DNA of 64,000 nucleotides from Columba livia (GCF_036013475.1 NC_088636.1:391066-455065), one strand, 5' to 3'. Shown: positions 2,771-50,464, counted from the first letter of the stretch. Numbers and translations are program-made. The notes: a model not told the origin generated them from the sequence alone.

Positions 2771-3010
2771 AATCTGCACCATGGGGGGGGTTGGGGGGGG
2801 GTTGGGGGGGTTTGGAGGGATTGAGGGGGGGTTGAGGGGGGGTTTGGGGGGGTTGGGGGGGGGTTGAGGGGGGGTTGGGGGGGATTGAGGGGGGTTGGGG
2901 GGGGTTTGAGGGGGGGTTTGGGGGGGGTTGGGGGGGTTTGGAGGGATTTAGGGGGGGTTTGGGGGGTTTGGGGGGGGTTTTTGGGGGGTTTTTTAGGGAG
3001 TTTTGGGGGG
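2771..3010. repeat. G-rich tract (G5-9 T/A)n
   Basis: Runs of gggggggg separated by tt or a. It has G-quadruplex potential on the plus strand. Confidence 0.8.
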
Positions 3011-3039
3011 AAAGGCGTTGGGGTCAATGGGTGATGTGT

Positions 3040-4262
3040 GGGGGGTAATTAAGGGGTTAACTAAGGGGTTAACTAAGGGACTAACGAGGGCAGTAGCGGT
3101 AATTAGGGGCTAACGAGGGCAGTGAAGCGGTAATTAGGGGCTAACGAGGGCAGTGAAGGGGTAATTAGGGGCTAACGAGGGCAGTGAAGCGGTAATTAGG
3201 GGCTAACGAGGGCAGTGAAGCGGTAATTAGGGGCTAACGAGGGCAGTGGAGCGGTAATTAGGAGCTAACGAGGGCAGTGAAGGGGTAATTAGGGGCTAAC
3301 GAGGGCAGTGGGGGTAATTAGGGGCTAACGAGGGCAGTGGGGTAATTAGGGGCTAACGAGGGCAGTAGCGGTAATTAGGGGCTAACGAGGGCAGTGGGGG
3401 TAATTAGGGGCTAACGAGGGCAGTAGCGGTAATTAGGGGCTAACGAGGGCAGTAGCGGTAATTAGGGGCTAACGAGGGCAGTGAAGGGGTAATTAGGGGC
3501 TAACGAGGGCAGTGAAGGGGTAATTAGGGGCTAACGAGGGCAGTGGGGGTAATTAGGGGCTAACGAGGGCAGTGGGGGTAATTAGGGGCTAACGAGGGCA
3601 GTGGGGGTAATTAGGGGCTAACGAGGGCAGTGGGGGTAATTAGGGGCTAACGAGGGCAGTGGGGGTAATTAGGGGCTAACGAGGGCAGTGGGGGTAATTA
3701 GGGGCTAACGAGGGCAGTGGGGGTAATTAGGGGCTAACGAGGGCAGTGGGGGTAATTAGGGGCTAACGAGGGCAGTGGAGCAGTAATTAGGGGCTAACGA
3801 GGGCAGTGAAGGGGTAATTAGGGGCTAACGAGGGCAGTGGAGCGGTAATTAGGGGCTAACGAGGGCAGTAGAGCGGTAATTAGGGGCTAACGAGGGCAGT
3901 GGAGCAGTAATTAGGGGCTAACGAGGGCAGTGAAGGGGTAATTAGGGGCTAACGAGGGCAGTGGAGTGGTAATTAGGGGCTAACGAGGGCAGTGAAGGGG
4001 TAATTAGGGGCTAACGAGGGCAGTGGAGCAGTAATTAGGGGCTAACGAGGGCAGTGAAGGGGTAATTAGGGGCTACCGAGGGCAGTAGAGCGGTAATTAG
4101 GGGCTAACGAGGGCAGTGGAGTGGTAATTAGGGGCTAACGAGGGCAGTGGAGTGGTAATTAGGGGCTAACGAGGGCAGTGAAGCGGTAATTAGGGGCTAA
4201 CGAGGGCAGTGGGGGTAATTAGGGGCTAACGAGGGCAGTGGAGTGGTAATTAGGGGCTAACG
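3040..4262. repeat. Tandem satellite, about 31-bp unit (GGTAATTAGGGGCTAACGAGGGCAGTGAAGC)
   Basis: About 38 near-identical copies, with variants containing gtagcg and gtggag. Confidence 0.9.
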
Positions 4263-4270
4263 AGGCTCAC

Positions 4271-4353
4271 CGTGTGCGCGGCGCCGGTCGATCAGCGGCC
4301 GCTGCGGCGCCACCGGCTCGTCCTCAAACTCGAACTGCGGCACCACCGGGGGC
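4271..4353 (-). CDS. PAGR1: PAGR1 coding exon 2
   Basis: The acceptor is cccgcag and the donor is GTGAGC on the minus strand. The translation is KPPVVPQFEFEDEPVAPQRPLIDRRRAH, compared with human [24 protein letters not shown]. Phases link exon 1 (2 nt) and exon 3 (1 nt over). Confidence 0.8.
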
Positions 4354-4374
4354 CTGCGGGACAACGGCCGCTCA

Positions 4375-5600
4375 CCGGGGGCGGGGCCTGGGGGGGGCGG
4401 GGCCAGGGGGGCGGGGTCCATGGGGGCACACGGTCCAATGGGGGGGCAGCGTCCAAGTTGGAGGGGGGCGGGGTCCAAGGTGGAGGGGGCAGGGTCCAAG
4501 GTGGAGGGGGTGGGGCCCATGGAGGGGGCGGGGCCCAAGGTGGAGGGGGGCGGGGTCCAAGGTAGATGGGGGCGGGGCCCAAGGTGGAGGGGGCGGGGTC
4601 CAAGGTAGAGGGGGGCGGGGCCATGGAGGGGGGCGGGGTCCAAGGTGGATGGGGCGGGGCCCATGGAGGGGGGCGGGGTCCAAAGTGGATGGGGCAGGGC
4701 CCATGGAGGGGGGCGGGGTCCAAAGTGGATGGGTCGGGGCCAATGGAGGGGGGCGGGGTCCAAGGTGGAGGGGGGGCGGGGTCCAAGTGGATGGGGCGGG
4801 GCCCATGGAGGGGGCGGGGCCTAAGGTGGAGGGGGCGGGGTCCAAAGTGGATGGGGCGGGGCCCATGGAGGGGGGCGGGGTCCAAGGTGGAGGGGGGGCG
4901 GGGTCCAAAGTGGATGGGGCGGGGCCCATGGAGGGGGGCGGGGTCCAAGGTGGCGGGGGGACGGGGTCCAAAGTGGATGGGGCGGGGCCCAAGGTGGAGG
5001 GGGGCGGGGCCCCAGGTGGAGGGGGCGGGGCACATGGAGGGGGGGCGGGGTCCAAGGTGGAGAGGGGCAGGGTCCAACGTAGAGGGGGCGGGGCCCATGG
5101 AGGGGGGGCAGGGTCCAATGTGGCGGGGGGCGGGGTCCAAGGTGGAGGGGGTGGGGCCCATGGAGGGGGCGGGGTCCAAGGTGGAGGGGCGGGGTCCAAA
5201 GTGGATGGGGCGGGGCCTATGGAGGGGGGCGGGGTCCAAGGTGGAGGGGGGGCGGGGTCCAAAGTGGATGGGGCGGGGCCTATGGAGGGGGGAGGGGTCC
5301 AAGGTGGAGGGGGGGCGGGGTCCAAGGTGGATGGGGCGGGGCCCATGGAGGGGGGAGGGGTCCAAGGTGGAGGGGGGGCGGGGTCCAAAGTGGATGGGGA
5401 TGGGCCCATGGAGGGGGGCAGGGTCCAAGGTGGAGGGGGGGCGGGGCCCCAGGTGGAGGGGGGCGGGGCCCATGGAGGGGGGCGGGGTCCAAAGTGGATG
5501 GGGGTGGGCCCATGGAGGGGGGCGGGGTCCAAGGTGGAGGGGGGGCGGGGTCCAAGGTGGATGGGGCGGGGCCCCAGGTGGAGGGGGGCGGGGCCCATGG
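4375..5600. repeat. Tandem satellite, about 39-bp unit (GGGGCGGGGTCCAAGGTGGAG + GGGGCGGGGCCCATGGAG)
   Basis: A regular alternation of TCCAAGGTGGA and CCCATGGAG sub-units sits within PAGR1 intron 1. The long ORFs here are artefacts. Confidence 0.9.
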
Positions 5601-5960
5601 AGGGGCCAGGAGTTCTGAGGGACCCAAATAGGGGACCCAGGAGTTCTGAGGGACCCAGGCGTCCGGGAGAGGGCCCAAATAGGGGACCCAGGAGTTCTGA
5701 GGGACCCAAGTAGGGGACCCAGGCGTTCGGGAGGGACCCAAGTAAGGGACCCAGGCATTCGCGAGGGACCCAAGTAGGTGACCCAGGCGTTCGGGAGGGA
5801 CCCAAATAGGGGACCCAGGCGTTCGGGAGGGACCCAAGTAAGGGACCCAGGCGTTCGGGAGGGACCCAAGTAGGGGACCCAGGCGTTCGGGAGGGACCCA
5901 AGTAGGGGACCCAGGCGCTCGGGAGGGACCCAAGTAGGGGACCCAGGCGCTCGGGAGGGA
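5600..5960. repeat. Tandem satellite, about 33-bp unit (GGGACCCAAGTAGGGGACCCAGGCGTTCGGGAG)
   Basis: About 10 copies. It belongs to the GGGACCCAGG family. Confidence 0.85.
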
Positions 5961-5977
5961 CCCAGCCCCGCCCTCAC

Positions 5978-6282
5978 TTGTCCGGCCTCTCCTGCGGCGG
6001 CTCCTCGCTGCTCTCGCAGGCGGGCGCCGCCTCCCGCAGGGGGGTGGGCGGTCTCCGCGGCCTGGCCGGCCGCCGCAGCTCCAGCGTGCCGCGCTGCGCG
6101 ATCAGCTCCAGCAGCCGCCGGATCTCGGGGGGCGCGGGCGCCCACCCCCCGCCTTCCTCCTCCTCCTCCTCCTCATCGCTGCGCGGCACGCACCAATCAG
6201 CGTCGTCCGTGGCCCAATTGGCGGCGGCGGCGGACCAATGGGCGTCCGAGGGGGCGGGGCCGGGGGCGGGGTCGGCGTCCAT
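5978..6282 (-). CDS. PAGR1: PAXIP1-associated glutamate-rich protein 1 (PA1), coding exon 1 including the start codon
   Basis: Minus-strand ATG at 6282-6280. The translation is [101 protein letters not shown]. It matches the conserved PA1 core DWCVPCSDEE...[20 protein letters not shown]...PRRPPTPE. The exon ends at a GTGAGG donor; the apparent TGA stop belongs to that donor. It is phase 2, which is consistent with exon 2. Confidence 0.8.
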
Positions 6283-6389
6283 CGTGGCGGGCGCGGGGGG
6301 GGGGCGGGGAATTGGCGGGAAGGGCGGGCTCGGCCGCCATGGCTGCGGAGCGGGAAACGGCCTGCGGAAACGGGGCTGAGTCAAAAAAT

Positions 6390-7250
6390 GGGGATTTATG
6401 TAAAAAATCGGGGGGTTGCCTCAAAAAATGGGGGGTTTACCTCAGTAAATGGGGGGTTTGCCTCAAAAAATGGGGGGTTTACGTCAAAAAATGGGGGATT
6501 TACCTCAATAAATGGGGGATCTACGTCAAAAAATGAGGGGTTTGCCTCAAAAAATGGTGATTTACCTCAAAAAATGAGGATTTACCTCAAAATATGGGGG
6601 GTTTGCCTCAAAAAATGGTGATTTACCTCAAAAAATGGGGATTTACCTCAATAAATGGGGATTTACCTCAATAAATGGGGATTTACGTCAAAAAATGGGG
6701 ATTTACCTCAATAAATGGGGGATTTACCTCAAAAAATGGTGATTTACCTCAAAAAATGAGGGATTTACCTCAATAAATGGGGATTTACCTGAAAAAATGA
6801 GGGATTTACCTCAAAAAATGAGGATTTACCTCAAAAAATGAGGGATTTACCTCAAAAAATGAGGATTTACCTCAAAAAATGAGGGATTTACCTCAAAAAA
6901 TGGGCATTTACCTCAAAAAATGGTGATTTACCTCAAAAAATTGGGATTTACCTCAATAAATGGGGATTTACCTCAAAAAATGGGGATTTACCTCAATAAA
7001 TGGGGGATTTACCTCAATAAATGGGGGATTTACCTCAAAAAATGAGGATTTACCTCAAAAAAATGAGGGATTTACCTCAAAAAAGGGATTTACCTCAAAA
7101 AATGGGGATTTATGGCAAAAAATGGAGATTTATGTTCAAAAAATGGGGGGTTTGCCTCAAAAACGGGGATATTTACCCCAAAAATGGGTCATTTACCTCA
7201 CAAATTCAATTATTTGCCTGAAAAATGGGTTATTTGCCCCAAAAAATCAA
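6390..7250. repeat. Tandem satellite, about 30-33-bp unit (TCAAAAAATGGGGATTTACCTCAATAAATGGGG)
   Basis: Regular periodicity. It is AT-richer than the surrounding sequence. Confidence 0.9.
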
Positions 7251-7279
7251 ACTGGTCTGTACTGGGGTCACTGGTCTAT

Positions 7280-7620
7280 ATTGGGAATGGGGGTCACTGG
7301 CTCCTACCGGCTCCGGCGTCTCCTCAATGGCGGCGGCGTCGGCGATGGGGGGGGCGCGTCCCCTCTCTCCCCGCCCACCCCTTCATCCGCCCAATCACCG
7401 CGCTCTCCCTTCCCCACATCGCCCTCTCATTGGCCGCCCCACTTTAACCCCGCCCCCTTCCTGGCACGCCCGCTTCCTTTCACTTCACCTCCCTCCCCGC
7501 GCATGCGCGCCCCGTCCTCCGGCGGGTTCCACTTCCGGTTGGCCGCCAGCGCCATCTTGGATCCGGGGCGGCGGGAAAAGCGGCGGCACCGGGGGGTCCC
7601 CCCCCCCCCCAGGGTGATTT
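7280..7620. promoter_or_regulatory. CpG-island promoter, probably bidirectional (PAGR1 on the minus strand, a TAOK2 5' non-coding exon on the plus strand)
   Basis: A unique GC-rich block lies between satellites. It contains a CCAAT box at 7391-7395 and an inverted one at 7428-7433, an NRF1 site GCGCATGCGC at 7499-7508, an ETS/GABP site CACTTCCGG at 7530-7538 and a YY1 core GCCATCTTGG at 7551-7560. Downstream on the plus strand are tandem GAGAACGGT repeats with GGTGAG donors (7757-7790) that could end a 5' UTR exon. Confidence 0.45.
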
Positions 7621-7779
7621 TGGGGTGAAATCGGCGCTTTTTGGGGCTCCCCGGAGCGGGGGGGGCGGCCGGACCCCCCCCCCGGAGCTGCAGCCGCCGG
7701 GGGGGGGAAACCTATGGGGCCGGGCGGGACCCACAAGCGGAGACAGCGGAGAGAACGGTGAGAACGGTGAGAACGGTGA

Positions 7780-8640
7780 GCGGCTGGGGGCGCTTGTGGG
7801 GCAGAACCGGGTCCTCTGGGCACTTGTGGGGCAGAACCGGGCACTTGTGGGGCAGAATGGGGTCACTGAGTCACTTATGGGGCGGAACCGGGCACTTATG
7901 GGGCAGAACCGGGCACTTGTGGGGCAGAACCGGGCACTTGTGGGGCAGAACTGGGCACTTGTGGGGCAGAACTGGGCACTTGTGGGGCAGAATGGGGTCA
8001 CTGAGTCACTTATGGGGCAGAACCGGGCACTTGTGGGGCAGAACCGGGCACTTGTGGGGCAGAACCGGGCACTTGTGGGGCAGAACCGGGCACTTGTGGG
8101 GCAGAACTGGGCACTTATGGGGCAGAATGGGGTCACTGATTCACTTGTGGGGCAGAACCGGCACTTGTGGGGCAGAATGGGGTCACTGAGTCACTTATGG
8201 GGCGGAACGGGCACTTATGGGGCAGAACTGGGCACTTATGGGGCAGAACTGGGCACTTATGGGGGCAGAATGGGGTCACTGAGTCACTTGTGGGGCAGAA
8301 CCGGGCACTTGTGGGGCAGAACCGGGCACTTGTGGGGCAGAATGGGGTCACTGATTCACTTGTGGGGCAGAACTGGGCACTTATGGGGCAGAATGGGGTC
8401 ACTGATTCACTTGTGGGGCAGAACTGGGCACTTGTGGGGCAGAATGGGGTCACTGAGTCACTTATGGGGCAGAAACTGGGCACTTATGGGGCAGAACTGG
8501 GCACTTATGGGGCAGAATGGGGTCACTGAGTCACTTGTGGGGCAGAACTGGGTGCTCTGGGCACTTATGGGGCAGAACTGGGCACTTGTGGGGCAGAGTT
8601 GGGTCCTCTGGGCACTTGTGGGGCAGAACCGGGCACTTGT
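7780..8640. repeat. Tandem satellite, 21-bp unit (CACTTGTGGGGCAGAACCGGG) with the variant GGGGTCACTGAGTCACTTATGG
   Basis: Head-to-tail copies within a TAOK2 5' intron. Confidence 0.9.
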
Positions 8641-9740
8641 GGGCAGAACCCCAGTCACTTATGGGTCAGGATTTGGCCCCCTGGGTCACTTATGGGTCAG
8701 GATTTGGCCCCCTGGGTCACTTATGGGTCAGGATTTGGACCCTGGGTCACTTATGGGGCAGAACCCCAGTCACTTATGGGTCAGGATTTGGCCCCCTGGG
8801 TCACTTATGGGTCAGGATTTGGTCCCCTGGGTCACTTATGGGTCAGGATTTGGCCCCCTGGGTCACTTATGGGGCAGGATTTGGACCCCTGGGTCACTTA
8901 TGGGTCAGGATTTGGCCCCCTGGGTCACTTATGGGTCAGGATTTGGTCCCCTGGGTCACTTATGGGTCAGGATTTGGCCCCCTGGGTCACTTATGGGTCA
9001 GGATTTGGCCCCCTGGGTCACTTATGGGGCAGGATTTGGCCCCCTGGGTCACTTATGGGGCAGGATTTGGCCCCCTGGGTCACTTATGGGTCAGGATTTG
9101 GCCCCCTGGGTCACTTATGGGTCAGGATTTGGCCACCTGGGTCACTTATGGGGCAGAACCCCAGTCACTTATGGGTCAGGATTTGGCCCCCTGGGTCACT
9201 TATGGGTCAGGATTTGGCCCCCTGGGTCACTTATGGGGCAGGATTTGGCCCCCTGGGTCACTTATGGGTCAGGATTTGGCCCCCTGGGTCACTTATGGGT
9301 CAGGATTTGGCCCCCTGGGTCACTTATGGGGCAGAACCCGAGTCACTTATGGGTCAGGATTTGGCCCCCTGGGTCACTTATGGGTCAGGATTTGGTCCCC
9401 TGGGTCACTTATGGGTCAGGATTTGCCCCCCTGGGTCACTTATGGGTCAGGATTTGCCCCCCTGGGTCACTTATGGGGCAGGATTTGGTCCCCTGGGTCA
9501 CTTATGGGGCAGGATTTGGCCCCCTGGGTCACTTATGGGGCAGAACCCGAGTCACTTATGGGGTCAGGATTTGGCCCCCTGGGTCACTTATGGGGCAGGA
9601 TTTGGCCCCCTGGGTCACTTATGGGTCAGGATTTGGCCCCCTGGGTCACTTATGGGTCAGGATTTGGACCCCTGGGTCACTTATGGGGCAGGATTTGGCC
9701 CCCTGGGTCACTTATGGGGCAGAACCGCAGTCACTTATGG
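8640..9740. repeat. Tandem satellite, about 31-bp unit (GGGTCACTTATGGGTCAGGATTTGGCCCCCT)
   Basis: About 35 copies. Confidence 0.9.
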
Positions 9741-9892
9741 GGCAGCACGTCTCTCCTCCTGCAGGCCGCCTCCCGCCCCGTCCCGTGGGGCGCAACGTGG
9801 ACCTCTGCTGAGCCGTGGGGCCGCCCCATAGATTCCGTGGGGCCGCCCCATAGATTCCGTGGGGCCGCCCCATAGATTCCGTGGGTCGCGCC

Positions 9893-10002
9893 ATGCCGTC
9901 GCTCAGCCCACGGATCCCGGGCTGTTCCGCCCCGAAGATCCCGAGAGCCTGTTTGGTGACCTGCGCGAGATCGGCCACGGCAGCTTCGGCGCCGTCTACT
10001 GC
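9893..10002 (+). CDS. TAOK2: TAO kinase 2, first coding exon (putative ATG at 9893; both boundaries uncertain)
   Basis: The kinase frame 9913-9999 encodes [29 protein letters not shown], matching the TAOK1/2 N-terminus and the start of the GxGxxG loop. ATG CCG TCG (MPS, as in TAOK1 MPS...) is 1 nt out of frame with it. The only GT donors (10003 and 10008) do not give the phase-1 junction that exon 2 requires. Confidence 0.6.
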
Positions 10003-10009
10003 GTTGAGT

Positions 10010-11170
10010 GCCGCCCCATAGCGCCCCATAGCGCCCCATAGCTGCCCCATAGCGCCCCACAGCGCCCCATAGCGCCCCATAGCGCCCCATAGCGCCCCAT
10101 AGCTGCCCCATAGCTGCCCCATAGCGCCCCATAGCTGCCCATAACTGCCCCATAGCGGCCCCATAGCGGCCCCATAGCGCCCCATAGCCGCCCCATAGCG
10201 CCCCATAGCCGCCCCATAGCGCCCCATAGCCGCCCCATAGCGCCCCATAGCCACCCCATAACTGCCCCATACGCCGCCCCATAACTGCCCCATAGCGGCC
10301 CCATAGCGGCCCCATAGCGCCCCATAGCTGCCCCATAGCCGCCCCATAGGCCGCCCCATAGCCACCCCATAGCCGCCCCACAGCGCCCCATAGCGCCCCA
10401 CAGCCGCCCCATAGCGCCCCATAGCCGCCCCATAGCTGCCCCATAGCGCCCCATAGCTGCCCCATAACTGCCCCATAGCGGCCCCATAGCGGCCCCATAG
10501 CGCCCCATAGCGCCCCATAGCGCCCCATAGCGCCCCATAGCTGCCCCATAGCGCCCCATAGCTGCCCCATAACTGCCCCATACGGCCCCATAGCGGCCCC
10601 ATAGCGGCCCCATAGCGCCCCATAGCGCCCCATAGCTGCCCCATAGCCGCCCCATAGCCACCCCCATAGCCGCCCCCACCAGCGCCCCATAGCGCCCCAC
10701 AGCCGCCCCATAGCGTCCCCATAGCTGCCCCATAGCTGCCCCATAGCTGCCCCATAGCGCCCCATAGCGCCCCATAGCCGCCCCATAGCGCCCCATAGCG
10801 CCCCATAGCTGCCCCATAGCGCCCCATAGCTGCCCCATAGCGGCCCCATAGCGCCCCATAGCGCCCCATAGCTGCCCCATAGCCCGCCCCATAGCCACCC
10901 CATAGCCGCCCCACAGCGCCCCATAGCGCCCCACAGCCGCCCCATAGCGTCCCCATAGCTGCCCCATAGCGCCCCATAGTGCTCCATAGCACCCCATAGC
11001 TGCCCCATAGTGGCCCCATAGCAGCCCCATAGCTGCCCCATATCACCCCATAGCTGCCCCATAGCCGCCCCATAGCGCCCCATATCGCCCCATAGCGCCC
11101 CATAGCCGCCCCATAGCGCCCCATAGCGCCCCATAGCGCCCCATAGCTGCCCCATAGCGCCCCATATTGC
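10010..11170. repeat. Tandem satellite, 10-11-bp unit (GCCCCATAGCG/GCCCCATAGCT)
   Basis: The array starts immediately after the TAOK2 exon 1 donor and ends at the exon 2 acceptor. Confidence 0.9.
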
Positions 11171-11187
11171 CCCACAACCGCCCCCAG

Positions 11188-11258
11188 GCCGGGACCTTCG
11201 CACCAACGAACTCGTCGCAATTAAGAAAATGTCGTATGGCGGGAAACGATCTGACGAG
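11188..11258 (+). CDS. TAOK2: TAOK2 coding exon 2
   Basis: The acceptor is cgcccccag and the donor is GTAACT. The translation is (x)RDLRTNELVAIKKMSYGGKRSDE, compared with human ARDVRNSEVVAIKKMSYSGKQSNE (the VAIK lysine). Confidence 0.85.
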
Positions 11259-11269
11259 GTAACTGAGAC

Positions 11270-12475
11270 CCACACGGGGACCCAGGCGTCCGGGGGACCC
11301 AGGAGTTCTGGGGGAGGGACCCAGGAGTTCTGGAGGAGGGACCCAGGAGTTCTGGGAGGGACCCAGGAGTTCTGGGAGGGACCCAGGAGTTCGGGAGGGA
11401 CCCAGGAGTTCTGGGAGGGACCCAGGAGTTCGGGGGGGACCCAGGAGTTCGGGAGGGACCCAGGAGTTCTGGGGGAGGGACCCAGGAGTTCTGGGAGGGA
11501 CCCAGGAGTTCTGGAGCAGGGACCCAGGAGTTCGGGATGGACCCAGGAGTTCTGGAGCAGGGACCCAGGAGTTCTGGGGGGACCCAGGAGTTCTGGAGGA
11601 GGGACCCAGGAGTTCTGGAGGAGGGACCCAGGAGTTCTGGGAGGGGACCCAGGAGTTCGGGAGGGACCCAGGAGTTCTGGGGGAGGGACCCAGGAGTTCT
11701 GGGGGAGGGACCCAGGAGTTCTGGGGGAGGGACCCAGGAGTTCTGGGGGAGGGACCCAGGAGTTCTGGGGGAGGGACCCAGGAGTTCTGGGGGAGGGACC
11801 CAGGAGTTCTGGGAGGGACCCAGGAGTTCTGGGGAGGGGGCCCGGGCGTTCGGGGGAGGACCCAGGAGTGCCCCAGGGACCCAGGCGTCCGGGAGGGACC
11901 CAGGAGTTCTGGAGGGACCCAGGAGTTCTGGGAGGGACCCAGGAGTTCTGGGGGAGGGACCCAGGCGTTCGGGGGAGGACCCAGGAGTGCCCCAGGGACC
12001 CAGGTGTTCAGGGAGGGACCCAGGAGTTCTGGGGAGGGACCCAGGAGTTCTGGGGAGGGACCCAGGCGTTCGGGGGAGGACCCAGGAGTGCCCCAGGGAC
12101 CCAGGTGTTCAGGGAGGGACCCAGGCGTCCGGGAGGGACCCAGGCGTCCGGGAGGGACCCAGGCGTTCTGGGGGACCCAGGAGTTTGGGGAGGGACCCAG
12201 GAGTTCGGGAGGGACCCAGGAGTTCTGGGGGAGGGACCCAGGCGTTCGGGGGAGGACCCAGGAGTGCCCCAGGGACCCAGGTGTTCAGGGAGGGACCCAG
12301 GCGTCCGGGAGGGACCCAGGCGTCCGGGAGGGACCCAGGCGTTCTGGGGGACCCAGGAGTTTGGGGAGGGACCCAGGAGTTCGGGAGGGACCCAGGCATC
12401 CGTGGGGGGACCCAGGCGTCCGGGAGGGACCCAGGCGTCCGGGAGGGACCCAGGCGTCCGGGCCCCCACGGCCCC
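11270..12475. repeat. Tandem satellite, about 21-bp unit (GGGACCCAGGAGTTCTGGGAG family)
   Basis: Regular copies with GCGTCC and GTGCCC variants. Confidence 0.9.
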
Positions 12476-12493
12476 GTGGGTCTGTGCCCACAG

Positions 12494-12596
12494 AAGTGGC
12501 GCGACATCGTGCGCGAGGTGTCGCTGCTGCAGCGGCTGCGCCACCCGAACACCGTGGGCTTCCGGGGCTGCTACCTGCGCGGGCACACGGGCCTGG
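12494..12596 (+). CDS. TAOK2: TAOK2 coding exon 3
   Basis: The acceptor is tctgtgcccacag. The translation is KWRDIVREVSLLQRLRHPNTVGFRGCYLRGHTGL, compared with [34 protein letters not shown]. The donor GTGAGC at 12597 leaves a phase mismatch of 1 nt with exon 4; a ctgGGTgag G-run is the suspected cause. Confidence 0.8.
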
Positions 12597-12599
12597 GTG

Positions 12600-15500
12600 A
12601 GCGACCCCCAAGTGTGGGGCGGACCCACAAGTGTGGGGCGGGACCCATAAGTGTGGGGCAGGACCCCCAAGTGTGGGGCGGGGGAGGGGGGGGGTTGAAA
12701 ATGGGGGTCTTAGGGGTTTTTTAGGCTCAGAAATGGGGTTTTGGGGGGTGGGTTTGGGACCCCCAAGTGTGGGGCTGGACCCACAAGTGTGGGGCGGGGG
12801 AGGGGCAGGTTGAAAATGGGGGTCTTCGGGTTTTTTTAGGCTCAGAAATGGGGTTTTGGGGGGGGGGTTGGGACCCATAAGTGTGGGGCAGGACCCATAA
12901 GTGTGGGGCGGGACCCACAAGTGTGGGGCGGGGGGTTTGGATGCTGGGAATGGGAGTTATTGGGTTGGATTTGGGCTCAGAAATCAGGGTTGGGGGGCAT
13001 TGGGACCCAAAAGTGTGGGGCTGGACCCATAAGTGTGGGGCTGGACCCACAAGTGTGGGGGCGGGACCCACAAGTGTGGGGCGGGACCCCCAAGTGTGGG
13101 GCGGGGGAGGGGCAGGTTGAAAATGGGGGTCTTAGGGGTTTTTTAGCTCAGAAATGGGGTTTTGGGGGTGGGTTTGGGACCCCCAAGTGTGGGGCGGGAC
13201 CCCCAAGTGTGGGGCGGGACCCACAAGTGTGGGGCTGGACCCCCAAGTGTGGGGCGGGGGAGGGGGGGGTTGAAAATGGGGGTCTTTGGGGTTTTTTAGG
13301 CTCAGAAATGGGGGTTTTGGGGGGGGGTTTGGGACCCCCAAGTGTGGGGCTGGACCCCCCAAGTGTGGGGCGGGGGAGGGGGGTGTTGAAAATGGGGGTC
13401 TTTGGGGTTTTTTTAGGCTCAGAAATGGGGTTTTGGGGGGGGGGTTGGGACCCATAAGTGTGGGGCAGGACCCATAAGTGTGGGGCGGGACCCACAAGTG
13501 TGGGGCGGGGGGTTTGGATGCTGGGAATGGGAGTTATAGGGTTGGATTTGGGCTCAGGAATCAGGGTTGGGGGGCATTGGGACCCACAAGTGTGGGGCGG
13601 ACCCCCAAGTGTGGGGCAGACCCACAAGTGTGGGGCAGGACCCATAAGTGTGGGGCGGGGGAGGGGGGGTTGAAAATGGGGGTCTTCGGGGTTTTTTAGG
13701 CTCAGAAATGGGGTTTTGGGGGTGGGTTTGGGACCCCCAAGTGTGGGGCTGGACCCATAAGTGTGGGGCTGGACCCATAAGTGTGGGGGCGGGGGAGGGG
13801 GGGGTTGAAAATGGGGGTCTTTGGGGTTTTTTAGGCTCAGAAATGGGGTTTCGGGGGTGGGTTTGGGACCCCCAAGTGTGGGGCAGGACCCCCAAGTGTG
13901 GGGCGGGACCCACAAGTGTGGGGCGGGACCCCCAAGTGTGGGGCGGGGGGTTTGGATGCTGGGAATGGGAGTTATAGGGTTGGATTTGGGCTCAGGAATC
14001 AGGGTTGGGGGATATTGGGACCCACAAGTGTGGGGCGGGACCCACAAGTGTGGGGCGGGGGGAGGGGGGTGTTGAAAATGGGGGTCTTCGGGGTTTTTTA
14101 GGCTCAGAAATGGGGTTTTGGGGGGGGGTTGGGACCCATAAGTGTGGGGCAGGACCCATAAGTGTGGGACAGGACCCATAAGTGTGGGGCGGGACCCACA
14201 AGGTGTGGGGCGGGGGGTTTGGGTGCTGGGAATGGGAGTTATTGGGTTGGATTTGGGCTCAGAAATCAGGGTTGGGGGGCATTGGACCCAAAAGTGTGGG
14301 GCTGGACCCATAAGTGTGGGGCTGGACCCACAAGTGTGGGGCGGGACCCACAAGTGTGGGGCGGGACCCCCAAGTGTGGGGCGGGGGAGGGGCAGGTTGA
14401 AAATGGGGGTCTTAGGGGTTTTTTAGGCTCAGAAATGGGGTTTTGGGGGTGGGTTTGGGACCCCCAAGTGTGGGGCTGGACCCATAAGTGTGGGGCGGGG
14501 GAGGGGGGGGTTGAAAATGGGGGTCTTTGGGGTTTTTTAGGCTCAGAAATGGGGTTTTGGGGGTGGGTTTGGGACCCCCAAGTGTGGGGCTGGACCCATA
14601 AGTGTGGGGCGGGGGAGGGGGGTGTTGAAAATGGGGGTCTTCGGGGTTTTTTAGGCTCAGAAATGGGGTTTTGGGGGGGGGTTGGGACCCATAAGTGTGG
14701 GGCAGGACCCATAAGTGTGGGACAGGACCCATAAGTGTGGGGCGGGGGGTTTGGGTGCTGGGAATGGGAGTTATTGGGTTGGATTTGGGCTCAGAAATCA
14801 GGGTTGGGGGGCATTGGGACCCACAAGTGTGGGGCTGGACCCACAAGTGTGGGGCTGGACCCACAAGTGTGGGGCGGGACCCACAAGTGTGGGGCGGGAC
14901 CCACAAGTGTGGGGCGGGACCCCAAGTGTGGGGCGGGGGAGGGTGGGGTTGAAAATGGGGGTCTTCGGGGTTTTTTAGGCTCAGAAATGGGGTTTTTGGG
15001 GGTGGGTTTGGGACCCATAAGTGTGGGGCGGGACCCATAAGTGTGGGGCGGGACCCACAAGTGTGGGGCGGGGGGTTTGGGTGCTGGGAATGGGTGTTAT
15101 TGGGTTGGATTTGGGCTCAGAAATCAGGGTTGGGGGGCATTGGGACCCCCAAGTGTGGGGCGGGACCCCCAAGTGTGGGGCGGACCCACAAGTGTGGGGC
15201 AGGACCCATAAAGTGTGGGGCGGGGGAGGGGGGGTTGAAAATGGGGGTCTTCGGGGTTTTTTAGGCTCAGAAATGGGGTTTTGGGGGTGGGTTTGGACCC
15301 CCAAGTGTGGGGCGGGACCCATAAGTGTGGGGCGGGGGTTTGGGTGCTGGGAATGGGAGTTATTGGGTTGGATTTGGGCTCAGAAATCAGGTTGGGGGGC
15401 ATTGGGACCCATAAGTGTGGGGCAGGACCCCCAAGTGTGGGGCAGGACCCCCAAGTGTGGGGCGGGACCCCCCAAGTGTGGGGCGGGGGGAGGGGGAGGT

Positions 15501-15900
15501 TGAAAATGGGTGTCTTTGGGGTTTTTTAGGCTCAGAAATGGGGTTTTGGGGGTGGGCTTGGGCCCCATAAGTGTGGGGCGGGACCCATAGATGTGGGGCA
15601 GGGGGTGTCAGGCCCCATAGGTGTGGGGCAGGACCCATAGATGTGGGGCTGGGGGAGGGTTTGGGGCCCAGAAATGGATTGCGGGGACATTGGGACCCAT
15701 AGATGTGGGGCAGGGGGTGTCTGGCCCCATAAGTGTGGGGCTGACCCATAAGTGTGGGGCAGGACCCATAAGTGTGGGGCAGGGGGTGTTGGGCCTCATA
15801 ATTGTTGGGGAAGGACTTGGGCCCCAGGAATGGGGGGTTGGGGACACTGGGACCCACAGATGTGGGGCAGGGGTTGTCCGGCCCCATAAGTGTGGGGCGG
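12600..15900. repeat. Composite satellite: a 20-bp unit (GGGACCCACAAGTGTGGGGC) with interspersed units of about 75 and about 80 bp, forming an irregular higher-order structure
   Basis: The marker blocks GTTGAAAATGGGGGTCTT...GGCTCAGAAATGGGG and GATGCTGGGAATGGGAGTTATTGGGTTGGATTTGGGCTCAG recur 14 and 7 times. Confidence 0.85.
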
Positions 15901-15947
15901 AGGGTCCGTCCGGCCCCACATCCATGGGGCAGGGCCGCTCTCCTCAG

Positions 15948-15993
15948 CTGGCCATGGAGCGCTGCCTGGGCTCGGCCGCCGACCTGCTGGAGG
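15948..15993 (+). CDS. TAOK2: TAOK2 coding exon 4
   Basis: The acceptor is ctctcctcag and the donor is GTGAGT. The translation is LAMERCLGSAADLLE, compared with LVMEYCLGSASDLLE. Confidence 0.85.
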
Positions 15994-16068
15994 GTGAGTG
16001 CTGTGGGGCGGCGCTATGGGGCAGCCCCATAGATCCCGGGGCTCACCCCCCAACCTCTGCCCCACAAG

Positions 16069-16166
16069 TGCACAAGAAGCCGCTGCGGGAGGCGGAGATC
16101 GCGGCCATCAGCCAGGGGGGCGCTGCGCGGGCTGGCCTACCTGCACCGCCTGGGGGTCATCCACAG
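16069..16166 (+). CDS. TAOK2: TAOK2 coding exon 5 (contains an apparent +1 G frameshift in the run at 16115-16120)
   Basis: The translation is VHKKPLREAEIAAISQG, then after a 1-nt shift ALRGLAYLHRLGVIHR, compared with [33 protein letters not shown]. The donor is GTCAGA at 16167. With one G removed, the phases fit exons 4 and 6 exactly. Confidence 0.8.
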
Positions 16167-16169
16167 GTC

Positions 16170-17980
16170 AGACCCATAGATTGACCCATAGATTGACCCA
16201 TAGATTGACCCATAGATTGACCCATAGGTCCTGACCCATAGCGCGACCATCGGCTTGCGTTGTGTTGGGCTTTCTGGTTCTTTTCTTGCTTGTGTTTGTG
16301 CTGCCCACAGATCCTGCCCCACAGATCCTGCCCCACAGATCCTGCCCCACAGATCCTGCCCCACAGATCCTGCCCCATAGATTTTGCCCCATAGATCTCC
16401 GCCATAGATCTGCCCTATAGATTGTGACCCATAGCGAGACCCATAGCAGGACCCACAGCCCCTGTTGTGGTGGTTTTTCTAGGTGTCCTCTTGCTTTTGT
16501 CCTGCCCCATAGATCCTGCCCCATAGATCCTGCCCTATAGATGTCCTGCCCCATAGATCCTGCCCCATAGATCCTGCCCTATAGATCCTGCCCCATAGTG
16601 AGACCCATAGATCCTGCTCTATAGATCCTGCCCCATAGCAGGACCCACAGCCCGTGTTGTGTTGGTTTCTCTGGGTCTTTTCTTGCTTGTGTTTATTGTT
16701 CCCGCCCCATAGATCCCGCCCCATAGATCCTGCCCCATAGCGGGACCCACAGATCCTGCCCCATAGATCCTGCCCCATATATCCTGGCCCTTAACCTGCC
16801 CTATAGATCCTGCCCCACAGATCCTGCCCATAGCAGGACCCACAGCCCCCGTTGTGGTGGTTTTTCTAGGTGTCCTCTTGCTTTTGTCCTGCCCCATAGA
16901 TCCTGCCCCATAGATCCTGCCCCATAGATCCTGACCCATAGATCCTGACCCATAGATCCTGACCCATAGCAGGACCCACAGCCCCCGTTGTGGTTGTTTC
17001 TCTGGGTCTTTTCTTGCTTGTGTTTATTGTTCCCACCCCATAGATCCTGCTCCATAGATCCTGCCCCATAGATCCTGCCCCATATATCCTGGCCCTTAAC
17101 CTGCCCTATAGATCCTGCCCCACAGATCCTGCCCCATAGCAGGACCCACAGCCCCCGTTGTGGTGGTTTTTCTAGGTGTCCTCTTGCTTTTGTCCTGCCC
17201 CATAGATCCTGCCCCATAGATCCTGCCCCATAGCGAGACCCGTAGATCCTGCCCCATAGATCCTGCCTCATAGCGAGACCCATAGATCATGCCCCATAGA
17301 TCCTGCCCCATAGCAGGACACACAGCCCCTGTTGTGTTGGTTTCTCTGGGTCTTTTCTTGCTTGTGTTTGTTGTTCCTGCCCCACAGATCCTGCCCCATA
17401 ACCTGCCCCATAGATCCTGCCCCATAGCGGGACCCATAGATGCTGCCCTATAGATGCTGCCGTATAGGTGCTGCCCCATAGCGGGACCCATAGATCCTGC
17501 CCCATAGATCCTGCCCCATAGATCCTGCCCCGTAGCAGGAGCCATAGATCCTGCCCCATAGATTCTGACCCATAGATCCTGCCCCATAGCAGGACCCACA
17601 GCCCATGTTGTGGCGGTTTTTCTGGGTCTTTTCTTGCTTGTGTTTGTTGTTCCTGCCCCACAGATCCTGCCCCATAACCTGCCCCATAGATCCTGCCCCA
17701 TAACCTGCCCCGTAGATCCTGCCCCATAGATTCCGCCCCATAGATCCTGCCCCATAGCGGGACCCACAGATCCTGCCCCACAGATCCTGCCCCATAGATC
17801 CTGTGCCATAGCGGGACCCATAGATCCTGCCCCACAGATCCTGACCCATAGATCCTGCCCCATAGCGGGACACACAGATCCTGCCCCATAGATCCTGCCC
17901 CACAGATCCTGAGCCATAGATCCTGCCCCATAGCAGGACCCATAGATCCTGCCCCACAGATCCTGACCCATAGATCCTGC
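16170..17980. repeat. Tandem satellite, about 15-bp unit (CATAGATCCTGCCCC) with a roughly 300-bp higher-order unit
   Basis: The block GCAGGACCCACAGCCCCCGTTGTGGTGGTTTTTCTAGGTGTCCTCTTGCTTTTGTCCTGCC recurs about every 300 bp. Confidence 0.85.
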
Positions 17981-18650
17981 CCTACGGCTCCAGCCCCACA
18001 GCTCCAGCCCCACTGATTCCGCCCCACTGATTCCGCCCCACTGATCCTGTCCCACTGCTCCCGCCCCACTGATCCCGCCCACTGATCCTGTCCCACTGAT
18101 CCGACCCCACTGCTCCCGCCCCACAGCTCCCGCCCCACTGATCCAGCCCCACTGATCCGGCCCCACTGCTCCCGCCCCACAGCTCCCGCCCCACTGATCC
18201 AGCCCCACAGCTCCCGCCCCACAGCTCCCGCCCCACAGCTCCCGCCCCACTGATCCAGCCCCACTGATCCGGCCCACTGATCCCGCCCCACTGATCCGAC
18301 CCCACTGCTCCCGCCCCACTGATCCGGCCCCACTGATCCGGCCCCACTGATCCTGCCCCACTGATCCGGCCCCACTGATCCAGCCCCACTGATCCGGCCC
18401 CACTGCTCCCGCCCCACTGATCCCGCCCCACTGATCCCGCCCCACTGACCCGGCCCCACTGATCCCGCCCCACGGCTCCTGCCCCACTGATCCAGCCCCA
18501 CTGACCCGGCCCCACTGATCCCGCCCCACTGATCCTGCCCCACTGACCCTGCCCCACTGACCCTGCCCCACTGACCCTGCCCCACTGACCCTGCCCCACT
18601 GATCCGGCCCCACTGATCCCGCCCCACTGACCCGGCCCCACGGCTCCCGC
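17980..18650. repeat. Tandem satellite, 15-bp unit (CACTGATCCGGCCCC/CACTGCTCCCGCCCC)
   Basis: Regular copies ending at the TAOK2 exon 6 acceptor. Confidence 0.9.
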
Positions 18651-18656
18651 CCGCAG

Positions 18657-18770
18657 GGACGTGAAGGCCGGGAACATCCTGCTGAGCGCCGTGGGGCAGG
18701 TCAAGTTGGGCGACTTCGGCTCCGCCGCCACGGCCGCCCCCAGCGGAGCCTTCGTGGGGACGCCCTACTG
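18657..18770 (+). CDS. TAOK2: TAOK2 coding exon 6 (catalytic loop and DFG)
   Basis: The acceptor is cccgcag and the donor is GTGAGC. The translation is (R)[38 protein letters not shown], compared with [39 protein letters not shown]. Confidence 0.9.
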
Positions 18771-18774
18771 GTGA

Positions 18775-19835
18775 GCGCCCCCCACGTGTGGGGCGGGACC
18801 CCCGGGTGTGGGGCTGGGACCCCCATGTGTGGGGCGGGACCCCCGAGTGTGGGGCTGGGACCCCCATGTGTGGGGCTGGGATTGGTGGTTGTGACCCCCG
18901 AGTGTGGGGCTGGACCCCCAAGTGTGGGGCTGGGATTGGTGGTTGTGACCCCCGAGTGTGGGGCTGGGACCCCCAAGTGTGGGGCTGGGACCCCCAAGTG
19001 TGGGGCTGGGATTGGTGGTTGTGACCCCCAAGTGTGGGGCTGGGACCCCCAAGTGTGGGGCTGGGACCCCCAAGTGTGGGGCTGGGATTGGTGGTTGTGA
19101 CCCCCAAGTGTGGGGCTGGGACCCCCACGTGTGGGGCAGGACCCCCAAGTGTGGGGCTGGGATTGGTGGTTGTGACCCCCAAGTGTGGGGCTGGGACCCC
19201 CACGTGTGGGGCAGGACCCCCAAGTGTGGGGCTGGGATTGGTGGTTGTGACCCCCAAGTGTGGGTCTGGGACCCCCAAGTGTGGGGCTGGGATTGGTGGC
19301 TGTGACCCCCAAGTGTGGGTCTGGGACCCCCAAGTGTGGGGCTGGGACCCATAGCGGGGCTGGGATTGGTGGTTGTGACCCCCAAGTGTGGGTCTGGGAC
19401 CCCCAAGTGTGGGGCTGGGATTGGTGGCTGTGACCCCCAAGTGTGGGTCTGGGACCCCCAAGTGTGGGGCTGGGACCCCCGAGTGTGGGGCTGGGATTGG
19501 TGGCTGTGACCCCCAAGTGTGGGGTGGGACCCCCGAGTGTGGGGCTGGACCCCCAAGTGTGGGGCTGGGACCCACAGCGGGGCTGGGATTGGTGGCTGGG
19601 ACCCCCAAGTGTGGGGCTGGGATTGGTGGTTGTGATCCCCGAGTGTGGGTCTGGGACCCCCAAGTGTGGGTCTGGGACCCCCAAGTGTGGGGCTGGGATT
19701 GGTGGTTGTGATCCCCGAGTGTGGGTCTGGGACCCCCAAGTGTGGGGCTGGGATTGGTGGTTGTGACCCCCAAGTGTGGGGCTGGACCCCCAAGTGTGGG
19801 GCTGGGATTGGTGGCTGTGACCCCCAAGTGTGGGC
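18775..19835. repeat. Tandem satellite, about 21-bp (GGGACCCCCAAGTGTGGGGCT) and about 33-bp (GGGATTGGTGGTTGTGACCCCCAAGTGTGGGGCT) units
   Basis: Alternating sub-units related to the 12600-15900 family. Confidence 0.85.
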
Positions 19836-19859
19836 TGAGTTCAGAGAGGGGGGACCCGG

Positions 19860-22650
19860 GAGTTTGGTCCTAATGCTCCCGCCCCACACATCCCGCCCCA
19901 CACATCCCGCCCCACACATCCTGCCCCACATCTGCCCCACACCCCCGCCCCATGTCTGCCCCACACACTGCCCCTCACCCGCCCCACACCCCCCCACACA
20001 TCCTGCCCCACACCTGTGCTGCACACCCTGCCCCACATCTGCCCCACATCTGCCCCACATCTGCCCCACATCCGCCCCACTCCTGACCTCCACCTCTTGC
20101 CCCACCCCACATCCCACCCCACACATCCGCGCCCCACACATCCGCGCCCCACACGTCTGTGCCCCACACATCCCACCGCACACATCTGTGCCCCACACAT
20201 CGCGCCCCACACATCCCACCCCACACCTCCTGCCCCACACATCCCTCCCCACCTCTGCCCCTCATCCACCCCACACCCCCCCACACCTCTGCCCCCCACA
20301 TCCTGCCCCACATCCTGCCCCACACCCCCGCCCCACACGCTGCCCCCCACATCCTGCCCCCCACATCCTGCCCCCCACATCCTGCCCCCCACCTCCCGCC
20401 CCCCACCTCCCGCCCCACACCTCCCGCCCCACACCTCCCGCCCCACACCTCCCGCCCCACACCTCCTGCCCCACACCTCCCGCCCCACACCTCCCGCCCC
20501 ACACATCCCGCCCCACACCTCCCGCCCCACACATCCCGCCCCACACCCGCCCCACACCCGCCCCACATGTGCCCCCAGGATGGCCCCCGAGGTGATCGTG
20601 GCCGTGGACGAGGGGCCGTACGACGGCCGAGCCGACGTCTGGTCCTTGGGCATCACCTGCATCGAGCTGGGTGAGCGCGGGGGCTGCCCCACATCGCCCC
20701 ACATCACCCCACATCTGCCCCATATCTGCCCCACATCTGCCCCACATCTGCCCCACATCTGCCCACATCCCCGCCCCACATCTGCCCCACATCTGCCCCA
20801 CATCTGCCCACATCCCGCCCCACATCCCGCCCCACATCCTGCCCCACATCCCGCCCCACATCTGCCCCACATCTGCCCCACATCCCGCCCCAAATCCCGC
20901 CCCACATCCCGCCCCACATCCCGCCCCACATCCGCCCCACATCCGCCCCACATCCCGCCCCACATCCCGCCCCACATCCCGCCCACATCCTGATCCACAT
21001 CCTGCCCCACATCCCGCCCCACATCTGCCCCACATCCTGCCCCACATCCTGCCCCACATCTGCCCCACGTCCTGCCCCACGTCCTGCCCCACATCCCGCC
21101 CCACATCCCGCCCCATATCTGACCCACATCCCGCCCCACATCCTGCCCCACATCCTGCCCCACATCCTGCCCCACATCTGCCCCACATCCTGCCCCACAT
21201 CTGCCCCACGTCCTGCCCCACATCCTGCCCCACATCTGCCCCACATCCCGCCCCACATCCCGCCCCACGTCCCGCCCACGTCCCGCCCCACGTCCTGCCC
21301 CACATCTGCCCCACATCTGCCCCACATCTGCCCCACATCCCGCCCCATATCTGCCCCACATTGCCCCACATCCCGCCCCACATCCCGCCCCACATCCCGC
21401 CTCACATCCCGCCCCACGTCTGCCCCACATCGCCCCACATCCCGCCCCATATCTGCCCCACATCCCGCCCCACATCCCGCCCCACATCTGCCCCACATCT
21501 GCCCCACATCGCCCCACATCCCGCCCCATATCTGCCCCACATCTCCCCACATCTGCCCCACATCCCGCCCCACATCCCGCCCCACATCCCGCCCCACATC
21601 CCGCCCCACATCCCGCCCCACATCTGCCCCCACATCTGCCCCCACATCCCGCCCCACATCCCGCCCCACATCCCGCCCCACATCCCGCCCCACATCCCGC
21701 CCCACATCCTGCCCCACATCTGCCCCACATCCCGCCCCACATCCCGCCCCACATCTGCCCCACATCCTGCCCCACATCCTGCCCCACATCTGCCCCACGT
21801 CCTGCCCCACGTCCTGCCCACGTCCTGCCCCACGTCCTGCCCCACATCCTGCCCCACATCCCTGCCCCACATCCCTGCCCCACATCCCGCCCCACATCCC
21901 CCCCACGTCCCGCCCCACGTCCCGCCCCACGTCCCGCCCCACGTCCTGCCCCACATCTGCCCCACATCTGCCCCACATCTGCCCCACATCCCGCCCCATA
22001 TCTGCCCCACATTGCCCCACATCTGCCCCATGTCCTGCCCCACGTCCTGCCCCACATCCTGCCCCACATCTGCCCCACATCTGCCCCACATCCCGCCCCA
22101 TATCTGCCCCACATTGCCCCACATTGCCCCACATCTGCCCCACATCCTGCCCCACATCTGCCCCACATCTGCCCCACATCTGCCCCACATCCCGCCCCAT
22201 ATCTGCCCCACATTGCCCCACATCCTGCCCCACATCCTGCCCCACATCCTGCCCCACATCTGCCCCACATCCCGCCCCACATCGCCCCACATCCCGCCCC
22301 ACATCCCGCCCCACATCCCGCCCCACATCCCGCCCCACGTCTGCCCCACATCGCCCCACATCCCGCCCCACATCTGCCCCACATCTGCCCCACATCGCCC
22401 CACATCCCGCCCCATATCTGCCCCACATCTCCCCACATCTGCCCCACATCCTGCCCCACATCCTGCCCCACATCCCGCCCCACATCCCGCCCCACATCTG
22501 CCCCACATCTGCCCCCACATCCCGCCCCACATCCCGCCCCACATCCTGCCCCACATCCCGCCCCACGTCTGCCCCACATCGCCCCACATCTGCCCCACAT
22601 CTCCCCACATCCTGCCCCACATCCCCTCATCTCTGCCCCCCATCTCCCCC
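19860..22650. repeat. C-rich tandem satellite, about 13-14-bp unit (CCCCACATCCCGCC/CCCCACATCTGCC), interrupted only by TAOK2 exon 7 (20579-20670)
   Basis: The same unit is present on both sides of exon 7, with no stop codons in several frames. The ORFs of 300-740 aa are artefacts. Confidence 0.9.
20579..20670 (+). CDS. TAOK2: TAOK2 coding exon 7 (APE motif)
   Basis: The acceptor is gcccccag and the donor is GTGAGC. The translation is (W)[30 protein letters not shown], compared with [30 protein letters not shown]. The exon sits as an island inside a continuous (CCCCACATCCCG)n array. Confidence 0.9.
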
Positions 22651-22679
22651 CATCTCCCCCCATGTCCCCGTGTCCCCAG

Positions 22680-22773
22680 CGGAGCGGAAGCCGCCGCTGT
22701 TCCACCTGAACGCCATGAGCGCGCTGTTCCACATCGCCCAGAGCGACCCCCCCCGCCTGCCCCCCGCCCCGTG
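22680..22773 (+). CDS. TAOK2: TAOK2 coding exon 8
   Basis: The acceptor is tgtccccag and the donor is GTGAGC. The translation is [31 protein letters not shown](W), compared with [32 protein letters not shown]. Confidence 0.9.
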
Positions 22774-22789
22774 GTGAGCCGCACGCCTG

Positions 22790-23285
22790 GGTCCCCCCCG
22801 GACGCCTGGGTCCCTCAGAACACCTGGGTCCCCTCCCGAACTCCTGGGTCCCTCCTGCACTCCTGGGTCCCCCCGAACGCCTGGGTCCCTCCCTGAACAC
22901 CTGGGTCCCTGGGGCACTCCTGGGTCTCCCCCCGGACGCCTGGGTCCCCCAAAACGCCTGGGTCCCCTCCCGGACGCCTGGGTCCCTCCCCAACCTCCTG
23001 GGTCCTCTCCCTAAACTCCTGGGTCCCTCAGAACTCCTGGGTCCCTCTCTGACCTCCTGGGTCCCCCCCGGACGCCTGGGTCCCCCTTCCGAACTCCTGG
23101 GTCCCCCCCCCCCGGACGCCTGGGTCCCTCCCCGGACGCCTGGGTCCCTCAGAACTCCTGGGTCCCTCCCCCCCGAACGCCTGGGTCCCTCCCCCCCAAA
23201 CGCCTGGGTCCCTCCCCGGACGCCTGGGTCCCTCAGAACTCCTGGGTCCCCCCCGGACGCCTGGGTCCCCCGGACGCCGGGGTCC
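22790..23285. repeat. Tandem satellite, about 20-bp unit (GACGCCTGGGTCCCTCCCCG), the reverse orientation of the GGGACCCAGG family
   Basis: It starts directly after the exon 8 donor and ends at the exon 9 acceptor. Confidence 0.9.
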
Positions 23286-23299
23286 CTGTCGGGTCGCAG

Positions 23300-23381
23300 G
23301 TCGCCGTGTTTCCGGGGGTTCGTGGGTTCGTGTCTCCAGAAGCAGCCGCAGGATCGACCCACGGCCGACGAGCTGCTGCAG
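23300..23381 (+). CDS. TAOK2: TAOK2 coding exon 9
   Basis: The acceptor is gggtcgcag and the donor is GTTAAT. The translation is (W)SPCFRGFVGSCLQKQPQDRPTADELLQ, compared with [27 protein letters not shown]. Confidence 0.85.
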
Positions 23382-50459: not shown

Positions 50460-50464
50460 CTGCG

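Follow-up and report, generated by a model that had tools for sequence, protein, structure and literature searches.

Does the domestic pigeon carry a broken copy of TAOK2, or is the gene broken only in its assembled sequence? The locus that raises this question lies in a stretch of 64,000 nucleotides (nt) of Columba livia DNA (GCF_036013475.1 NC_088636.1:391066-455065), analysed whole and referred to here as the window; it is a very GC-rich region whose plus strand encodes a TAO-family kinase. An initial annotation had found exons of this gene out of frame with one another and had offered two explanations, assembly error or decay of the gene in this lineage. Here, the window is compared with a second C. 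livia assembly (GCA_032206205.1, a 34-kb contig; L001) and with the locus of Caloenas nicobarica (GCA_036013445.1, a 775-kb chromosome; L002). The second conspecific assembly, the outgroup, the ratio of indels to substitutions, the polarisation of repeat units and the ratio of nonsynonymous to synonymous substitution rates (dN/dS) all favour the first explanation, and we propose, with a probability of roughly 0.93, that the frame breaks are consensus artefacts of the assembly and not mutations in the bird.

Frame breaks in the assembled gene

The exons of TAOK2 are islands of 46-216 bp among kilobase-scale tandem arrays. They were located with a human TAOK2 sequence and then read in three frames together with their splice sites. 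Human sequences (TAOK2, TAOK1, CDIPT, PAGR1 and MFAP4) were used for locating exons only, and conclusions are drawn from database proteins, genomic loci and PDB alignments. Three-frame reading and stitching of the exons revealed one single-base frame error in each of exons 1, 2, 3 and 5. The affected part of the gene is laid out as follows:

9893-10002, plus strand: TAOK2 coding exon 1 (MPSLS...GAVYC), from three-frame reading; a C is missing in the run at 9907-9909 (CCCC in L001 and Caloenas), and L001 contains the corrected exon unchanged
10003-10008, plus strand: donor of intron 1, assembled as GTTGAG; extra T at 10004/10005; GTGAGT in L001 and Caloenas
10012-11174, plus strand: tandem array of intron 1, ~110 copies of CGCCCCATAG; at least 8 single-base indels private to the window break canonical units
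11188-11258, plus strand: exon 2 (ARDLRTNELVAIKKMSYGGKRSDE); a C is missing at 11189-11190; 71 nt raw vs 72 in L001 and Caloenas
12494-12596, plus strand: exon 3 (KWRDIV...GHTAW); surplus G at 12589-12591; 103 nt raw vs 102 in L001 and Caloenas
15948-15993, plus strand: exon 4 (LAMERCLGSAADLLE); error-free and the same as in L001
16069-16166, plus strand: exon 5 (VHKKPL...GVIHR, with the HRD motif); surplus G in 16115-16120; 98 nt raw vs 97 in L001 and Caloenas

Translated as assembled from the ATG at 9893, the gene meets a stop in exon 2, after 48 codons. The raw lengths of exons 1-10 add up to 972 nt, a multiple of 3, with the two -1 and two +1 errors cancelling, so that a check of divisibility by 3 alone would not flag them.

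The initial annotation had placed a shift in exon 5 at the run of six Gs (16115-16120), and this was borne out: the open reading switches there from frame 3 (VHKKPLREAEIAAISQ) to frame 1 (GALRGLAYLHRLGVIHR). It had also put exons 3 and 4 one base out of phase, which is correct, and had blamed the GGG at the donor (12596-12598), which is not; the surplus base lies seven bases upstream, in the GGG of ACGGGCC at 12589-12591. Removing one G here gives CAC ACG GCC TGG followed by the donor GTGAGC, and hence HTAW, a motif that does not vary among TAO kinases and reads so in the mammalian ones, whereas correction at the donor gives HTGL. Similarly, the first ATG is indeed out of frame, and what had been taken for a single error in exon 1 resolves into two missing Cs and a damaged donor. 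Restoring a C in 9907-9909 brings the MPS... ATG into frame; exon 2 reads GCC-GGG in place of GCC CGG (A R), so that the junction of exons 1 and 2 is off by one; and the extra T turns the intron 1 donor GTGAGT into GTTGAG. The exon 2 error lies outside the intervals that had been marked for checking against reads. The claim that all breaks fall at G or GC runs stands, the exonic sites being G or C runs of 2-6 bases.

GC-AG splicing and alternative donors or acceptors were considered at the exon 1/2 and 3/4 junctions and rejected, since the one-base differences seen in the second pigeon assembly and in Caloenas restore in-phase, canonical GT-AG introns. Nor are the breaks a product of chance, because the corrected protein aligns gap-free over 305 residues to rat TAO2 (residues 7-311 against residues 42-346 of 1U5Q, E 8e-144).

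Two pigeon assemblies and an outgroup

When the frame-corrected conceptual protein was searched against the protein database, the top two matches were a full-length TAO2 of Caloenas nicobarica (P0001, 89% identity) and a hypothetical protein of C. livia (P0075, annotated in L001), which equals the corrected translation for ~170 N-terminal residues and then runs out of frame. At the DNA level, exon-by-exon comparison of the two pigeon assemblies found 0 substitutions in exons 1-6 and 8-10 and one-base indels alone. The window has CCC for CCCC at 9907-9909 (exon 1), GCCGGG for GCCCGGG at 11189-90 (exon 2), ACGGGCC for ACGGCC at 12589-91 (exon 3) and G6 for G5 at 16115-20 (exon 5). These differences are exactly the ones that restore the frame; corrected exons 1-5 are exact substrings of the second assembly, and all four exonic indels, together with the donor T, are absent from GCA_032206205.1.

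Caloenas genomic DNA likewise has the in-frame length at each of the sites. Its exons 2-9 measure 72, 102, 46, 97, 114, 92, 94 and 82 nt, the lengths of the corrected pigeon exons, where raw exons 2-5 of the window measure 71, 103, 46 and 98 nt; the coding sequence rebuilt from Caloenas genomic DNA is an intact open reading frame equal to P0001. Each frame break is a one-base difference found only in the assembly of the window, and all lie in a patch where that assembly also mis-spells non-coding repeats.

In the window, exons 6-11 and the last exon agree in phase and stay open; the second assembly has extra bases of its own among them, in exon 6 (C6 vs C5), in exon 8 (C9 vs C8) and at four sites in the last exon. 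At these sites the window is in frame and matches Caloenas or human. The features concerned are:

18657-18770, plus strand: exon 6 (DVKAGN...DFG...GTPYW); in frame; C5 in the window vs C6 in L001
20579-20670, plus strand: exon 7 (MAPEV...); in frame
22680-22773, plus strand: exon 8; C8 and C6 runs in frame; the former is C9 in L001 and C8 in Caloenas
23300-23381, plus strand: exon 9; in frame
24336-24497, plus strand: exon 10; in frame
25882-26097, plus strand: exon 11, a Ser-rich and acidic D/G-repeat region; in frame, with a 15-nt in-frame length difference from L001
27899-28738 (5' limit putative), plus strand: last exon, a single open frame for a hydrophobic C-terminal tail typical of TAOK2-alpha, ending ...RRPWR*
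L001 16427-16578 (exon 6), 19293-19419 (exon 8) and 24977-25887 (last exon): one-base insertions of the second assembly

Because of its own one-base insertions, the second assembly carries an annotated protein (Q9966_016763) in which residues ~171 to 286 are an out-of-frame translation. The two assemblies thus break TAOK2 at different places and, merged, give a fully open reading frame. The true coding sequence is obtained only by combining both pigeon sequences and checking them against Caloenas.

The character of the differences also speaks to their origin. Across positions 1-8000 and 9001-12000 of the window, the two assemblies differ by 84 single-base indels and 0 substitutions. Real haplotype differences are mostly substitutions, and a ratio of 84 to 0 indicates that these are not real polymorphism. 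Within positions 1-8000 alone there are 70 single-base indels and 0 substitutions, and in 52 of the 70 the second assembly has one extra G. Towards the 3' end there are genuine-looking differences: the 3' exon-flanked alignment contains three isolated substitutions, of which two lie within the coding tail, and exon 11 (26008-26022) has a 15-nt in-frame difference in a GAC/GGT (Asp/Gly) repeat that looks like a genuine microsatellite-type polymorphism. The comparison is therefore able to detect real variants.

The initial annotation had supposed that indels might be concentrated in TAOK2, and this did not hold. Exons 1-5 with short flanks, taken as aligned blocks, contain 5 indels in 575 nt, a density equal to the non-coding background of ~0.8 per 100 bp, and hence there is no enrichment in the gene; introns 1 and 2 are littered alike. 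In intron 2, a 19-20-bp unit is repeated ~57 times (11294-12454); a complex array spanning ~3 kb makes up intron 3, and later introns are similar in kind. Throughout the gene (10012-25872), nearly every intron is taken up by a tandem array of its own, whose units are either short and related (CGCCCCATAG, TCCTGCCCCATAGA, CTGCCCCACATC, CCCATTGTC) or G-rich and ~20 bp long, and the G-rich strand alternates from intron to intron.

These arrays allow the differences to be polarised independently of coding sequence, by asking at each one-base indel which assembly has the common unit and which has a version occurring once. At 8-12 kb, the window has the unit-breaking version 14 times and the second assembly 0 times; for example, the window reads ATACGCCGCCCC where 69-77 other copies read ATAGCGCCCC. 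At 0-8 kb the result is reversed (window 3, second assembly 16). Since polarisation at 0-8 kb blames mostly the second assembly, error-dense patches alternate between the two assemblies along the locus. A broader attempt, polarising all 316 one-base indels between the two by exact Caloenas k-mers, was dropped; only 10 were informative, they split 5:5, and most lay within repeats.

Within the coding sequence, all four window-side errors lie in exons 1-5, which make up 428 corrected nt of the 1,938 compared, a clustering that evenly spread errors would give with a chance of ~0.002. Homopolymer length is not a sufficient cause, and we reject it as such: exons 1-5 contain few long runs, and runs of 2-6 bases are wrong there, while the gene's longest runs (C8, C9, G8), which lie in exon 8 and the last exon and reach 9 bases, are correct in the window.

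Consensus error, decay and other explanations

We propose that a local patch of poor consensus, and neither a general homopolymer problem nor decay of the gene, is responsible. The window probably comes from a long-read assembly of the domestic or rock pigeon, and it covers a GC-rich region typical of bird microchromosomes. A stretch of ~8 kb (window ~8-16 kb, with exons 1-5) would have been built from noisy long reads or at low coverage, would have escaped polishing, so that single-base consensus errors remained in it. The probable cause is that short exons among GC-rich, G-run-rich arrays were not covered, or not uniquely mapped, by accurate reads. Four coding errors and a fifth in a splice donor would then yield the apparent frameshifts.

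False frameshifts in hard-to-sequence avian genes are an already known class, and the present case is an ordinary finding in that respect. Rhie et al. 2021 reported that the commonest errors of continuous long-read (CLR) assemblies are short consensus indels that shift the reading frame, and that TLK1 in the primary assembly of Anna's hummingbird carried a frameshift owing to an unpolished locus (PMC8081667). Kim et al. 2022 found that false indels in bird genes are concentrated in GC-rich exons close to the 5' end, with false micro-introns in PCDH17 of the older zebra finch assembly among them (PMC9516821). As in TLK1 and PCDH17, the pigeon indels affect single bases of GC-rich exons towards the 5' end of a bird gene, break a conserved open reading frame and are absent from another assembly, at loci that polishing reads would not have reached. 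Unlike in those cases, both pigeon assemblies err, in different and complementary patches of TAOK2, and in the window short runs (2-6 bases) are wrong while longer ones are right. The gene also resembles the GC-rich avian genes described as hidden or missing (PMC5470226, PMC6321700, PMC8449477): it is extremely rich in GC, lies among repeats, evolves fast and is difficult to sequence. TAOK2 is likewise poorly or partly annotated in most birds, and bird models among the database matches measure 298-476 aa. It differs from the hidden genes in being present and contiguous, with base-level accuracy as the problem.

Several points weigh against consensus error as the explanation. It is a deduction from the comparison of assembled sequences. 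Over the first 12 kb both pigeon assemblies have one and the same haplotype, and they may not derive from independent read sets; no pigeon transcript sequence was among the results of the protein-database search. Finally, three of the four exonic errors lie in runs of just 2-4 bases, while much longer runs elsewhere are correct. Such short-run errors are unusual for plain homopolymer miscalling and need a locally poor-consensus patch.

The corrected gene itself bears on the alternative of decay. Its product matches the Pfam Pkinase model with E 1.8e-60, as a STE20-type protein kinase domain, and retains the catalytic motifs: the glycine loop GHGSFG, the VAIK lysine, HRDVKAGN, DFG and APE. By the Nei-Gojobori method, corrected pigeon against Caloenas, dN/dS is 0.17 over exons 1-10, 0.15 over the kinase domain (the region for which the initial annotation had asked for this test) and 0.069 over exons 1-5 (dS 0.35). 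The exons that appear broken are thus the most constrained, which speaks against decay. By these measures TAOK2 here is predicted to be an intact kinase gene under selection.

If the frameshifts were real germline mutations, the sequenced pigeon would carry TAOK2 as a recently formed pseudogene or as a null allele, and the assembled bases would be correct as they stand, giving a domestic pigeon with four frameshifts and a weakened donor. This would be a natural knockout of a kinase of the 16p11.2 block, with the surrounding non-coding indels due to a local mutational process specific to indels. The bases are, after all, present in the assembled sequence, real indels also favour mononucleotide runs, and bird TAOK2 is fast-evolving and seemingly minus a domain, so that relaxed constraint is conceivable. 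A unitary pseudogene would likewise show several frame disruptions and a premature stop. Here, however, four frameshifts and a donor lesion would have arisen without any substitution relative to an in-frame conspecific allele, and private one-base indels of the same kind fill the adjacent introns, at 14:0 against the repeat consensus. Unlike those of a unitary pseudogene, the disruptions are not common to the conspecific or the sister genus; there is no nonsynonymous excess (omega 0.07 in the affected exons), and the essential residues are kept. The different frameshifts in the other assembly would moreover demand a second, independent pseudogenisation. We consider both a pseudogene in this bird and the literal correctness of its assembled bases very improbable.

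Alternatively, most of the indels could be errors while at least one of the four exonic ones is a genuine heterozygous or haplotype-specific variant. The locus does hold real variation, namely the isolated substitutions in the last exon and the 15-nt in-frame difference of exon 11. Against such a mixture stand the 0 substitutions within 9-12 kb, the position of each exonic indel within a patch in which it is consistently the window that deviates, and the consequence that a frameshift upstream of the catalytic core would, in a region under strong constraint, amount to a null allele. We regard the mixture, too, as having only a slim chance of being right. Recoding of the message by programmed ribosomal frameshifting, transcriptional slippage or RNA editing can be practically discounted: although all sites are mononucleotide runs and so substrates for slippage, four events of both signs (-1, -1, +1, +1) would be needed in one mRNA, the stop in exon 2 precedes recovery of the frame, and the in-frame sequence is encoded directly in the genomes of a second pigeon and Caloenas.

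Orthology, C-terminal region and neighbouring genes

The gene is best called a TAOK2 ortholog, a predicted assignment whose grounds are its nearest named relatives, its tail, synteny and a TAO2-like kinase domain. The nearest database proteins carry the name TAO2. Among structure matches, TAO2 scores 482 bits and TAO3 456, a small margin, with no TAO1 structure among the matches. Like TAO2, a STE20-family MAP3K of known structure (1U5Q, 1U5R, 2GCD), the pigeon protein has the whole 305-residue kinase alignment free of gaps and every catalytic motif. It differs in sharing only ~68% identity with mammalian TAO2 over the kinase domain, at a GC content of third codon positions (GC3) of 0.92. The window has PAGR1 (minus strand) upstream of the gene and CDIPT (plus strand) downstream of it; PAGR1 is also upstream in both L001 and L002, and CDIPT downstream in L002. 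Both genes lie in the human 16p11.2 block. The caveats on orthology are the small margin over TAO3 and the apparent absence of one defining region.

The tail exon is matched by the human sequence at a tblastn E of 5e-22. A word-indexed protein search with the C-terminal tail returned nothing, its candidate list being saturated by low-complexity sequence, and was replaced by an exhaustive HMMER search. The matches fall on the tails of P0123 and P0124, full-length TAO kinases with kinase domain, coiled coil and tail, and a hydrophobic tail ending PWR is common to these two proteins and the pigeon. Human TAOK2 likewise has a hydrophobic C-terminal tail ending PWR. We putatively assign the tail exon to TAOK2 and predict its splicing to the kinase exons. 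In Caloenas, the tail exon (L002 ~22990-23010) shows one frame change, at a poly-proline C-run before ...PPLPQRLW...PRKPWR, which is either another homopolymer error or a real difference.

Unlike in mammalian TAO2, a central coiled coil of ~300 residues (human residues ~450-745) was not found in the pigeon or Caloenas loci: it has no detectable counterpart between exon 11 and the tail exon (26098-27898), and very permissive searches with human TAOK2 and TAOK1, lizard and Calidris coiled-coil queries gave no credible match in the window, L001 or L002. A passerine-like model (P0121), also recovered by the HMMER search with the tail, passes from the kinase C-lobe through low-complexity sequence directly to the tail, and a Calidris fragment (P0102) contains the start of the coiled coil. 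TAOK2 may have lost the coiled coil in a lineage-specific manner in columbids and perhaps in passerines; genomic absence and gene predictions hint at such a loss.

The initial annotation had described the neighbouring genes as free of frame problems. For CDIPT this is right, with five of the five exon junctions found in phase, while PAGR1 exon 1 is only partly usable as a control. In this exon (minus strand; window 6255-6262 and 6283-6342), two C-run differences from the second assembly change the opening ATG (6340 or ~6283); they lie in an unconserved N-terminal stretch not alignable to Caloenas, and the conserved core is the same in both pigeon assemblies. Further downstream, an MFAP4-like gene occupies 45273-53644 on the minus strand, its last exon 90% identical to human MFAP4. 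Extra partial copies of one of its internal exons, GEEDGYTLHVGGFVDGGAGE at 49058-49102 and 49267-49326 and GLQALHLLTLQGRYEL at 50594-50677, could be a local tandem duplication or an assembly duplication.

In summary, the possible absence of the coiled coil is the one possibly genuine point of interest at this locus, and it lies outside the question of the frameshifts. Annotation or gene-loss inference from this assembly would wrongly call TAOK2 a pseudogene or model false micro-introns. The corrected gene indicates instead that columbids keep a constrained and catalytically competent TAOK2.

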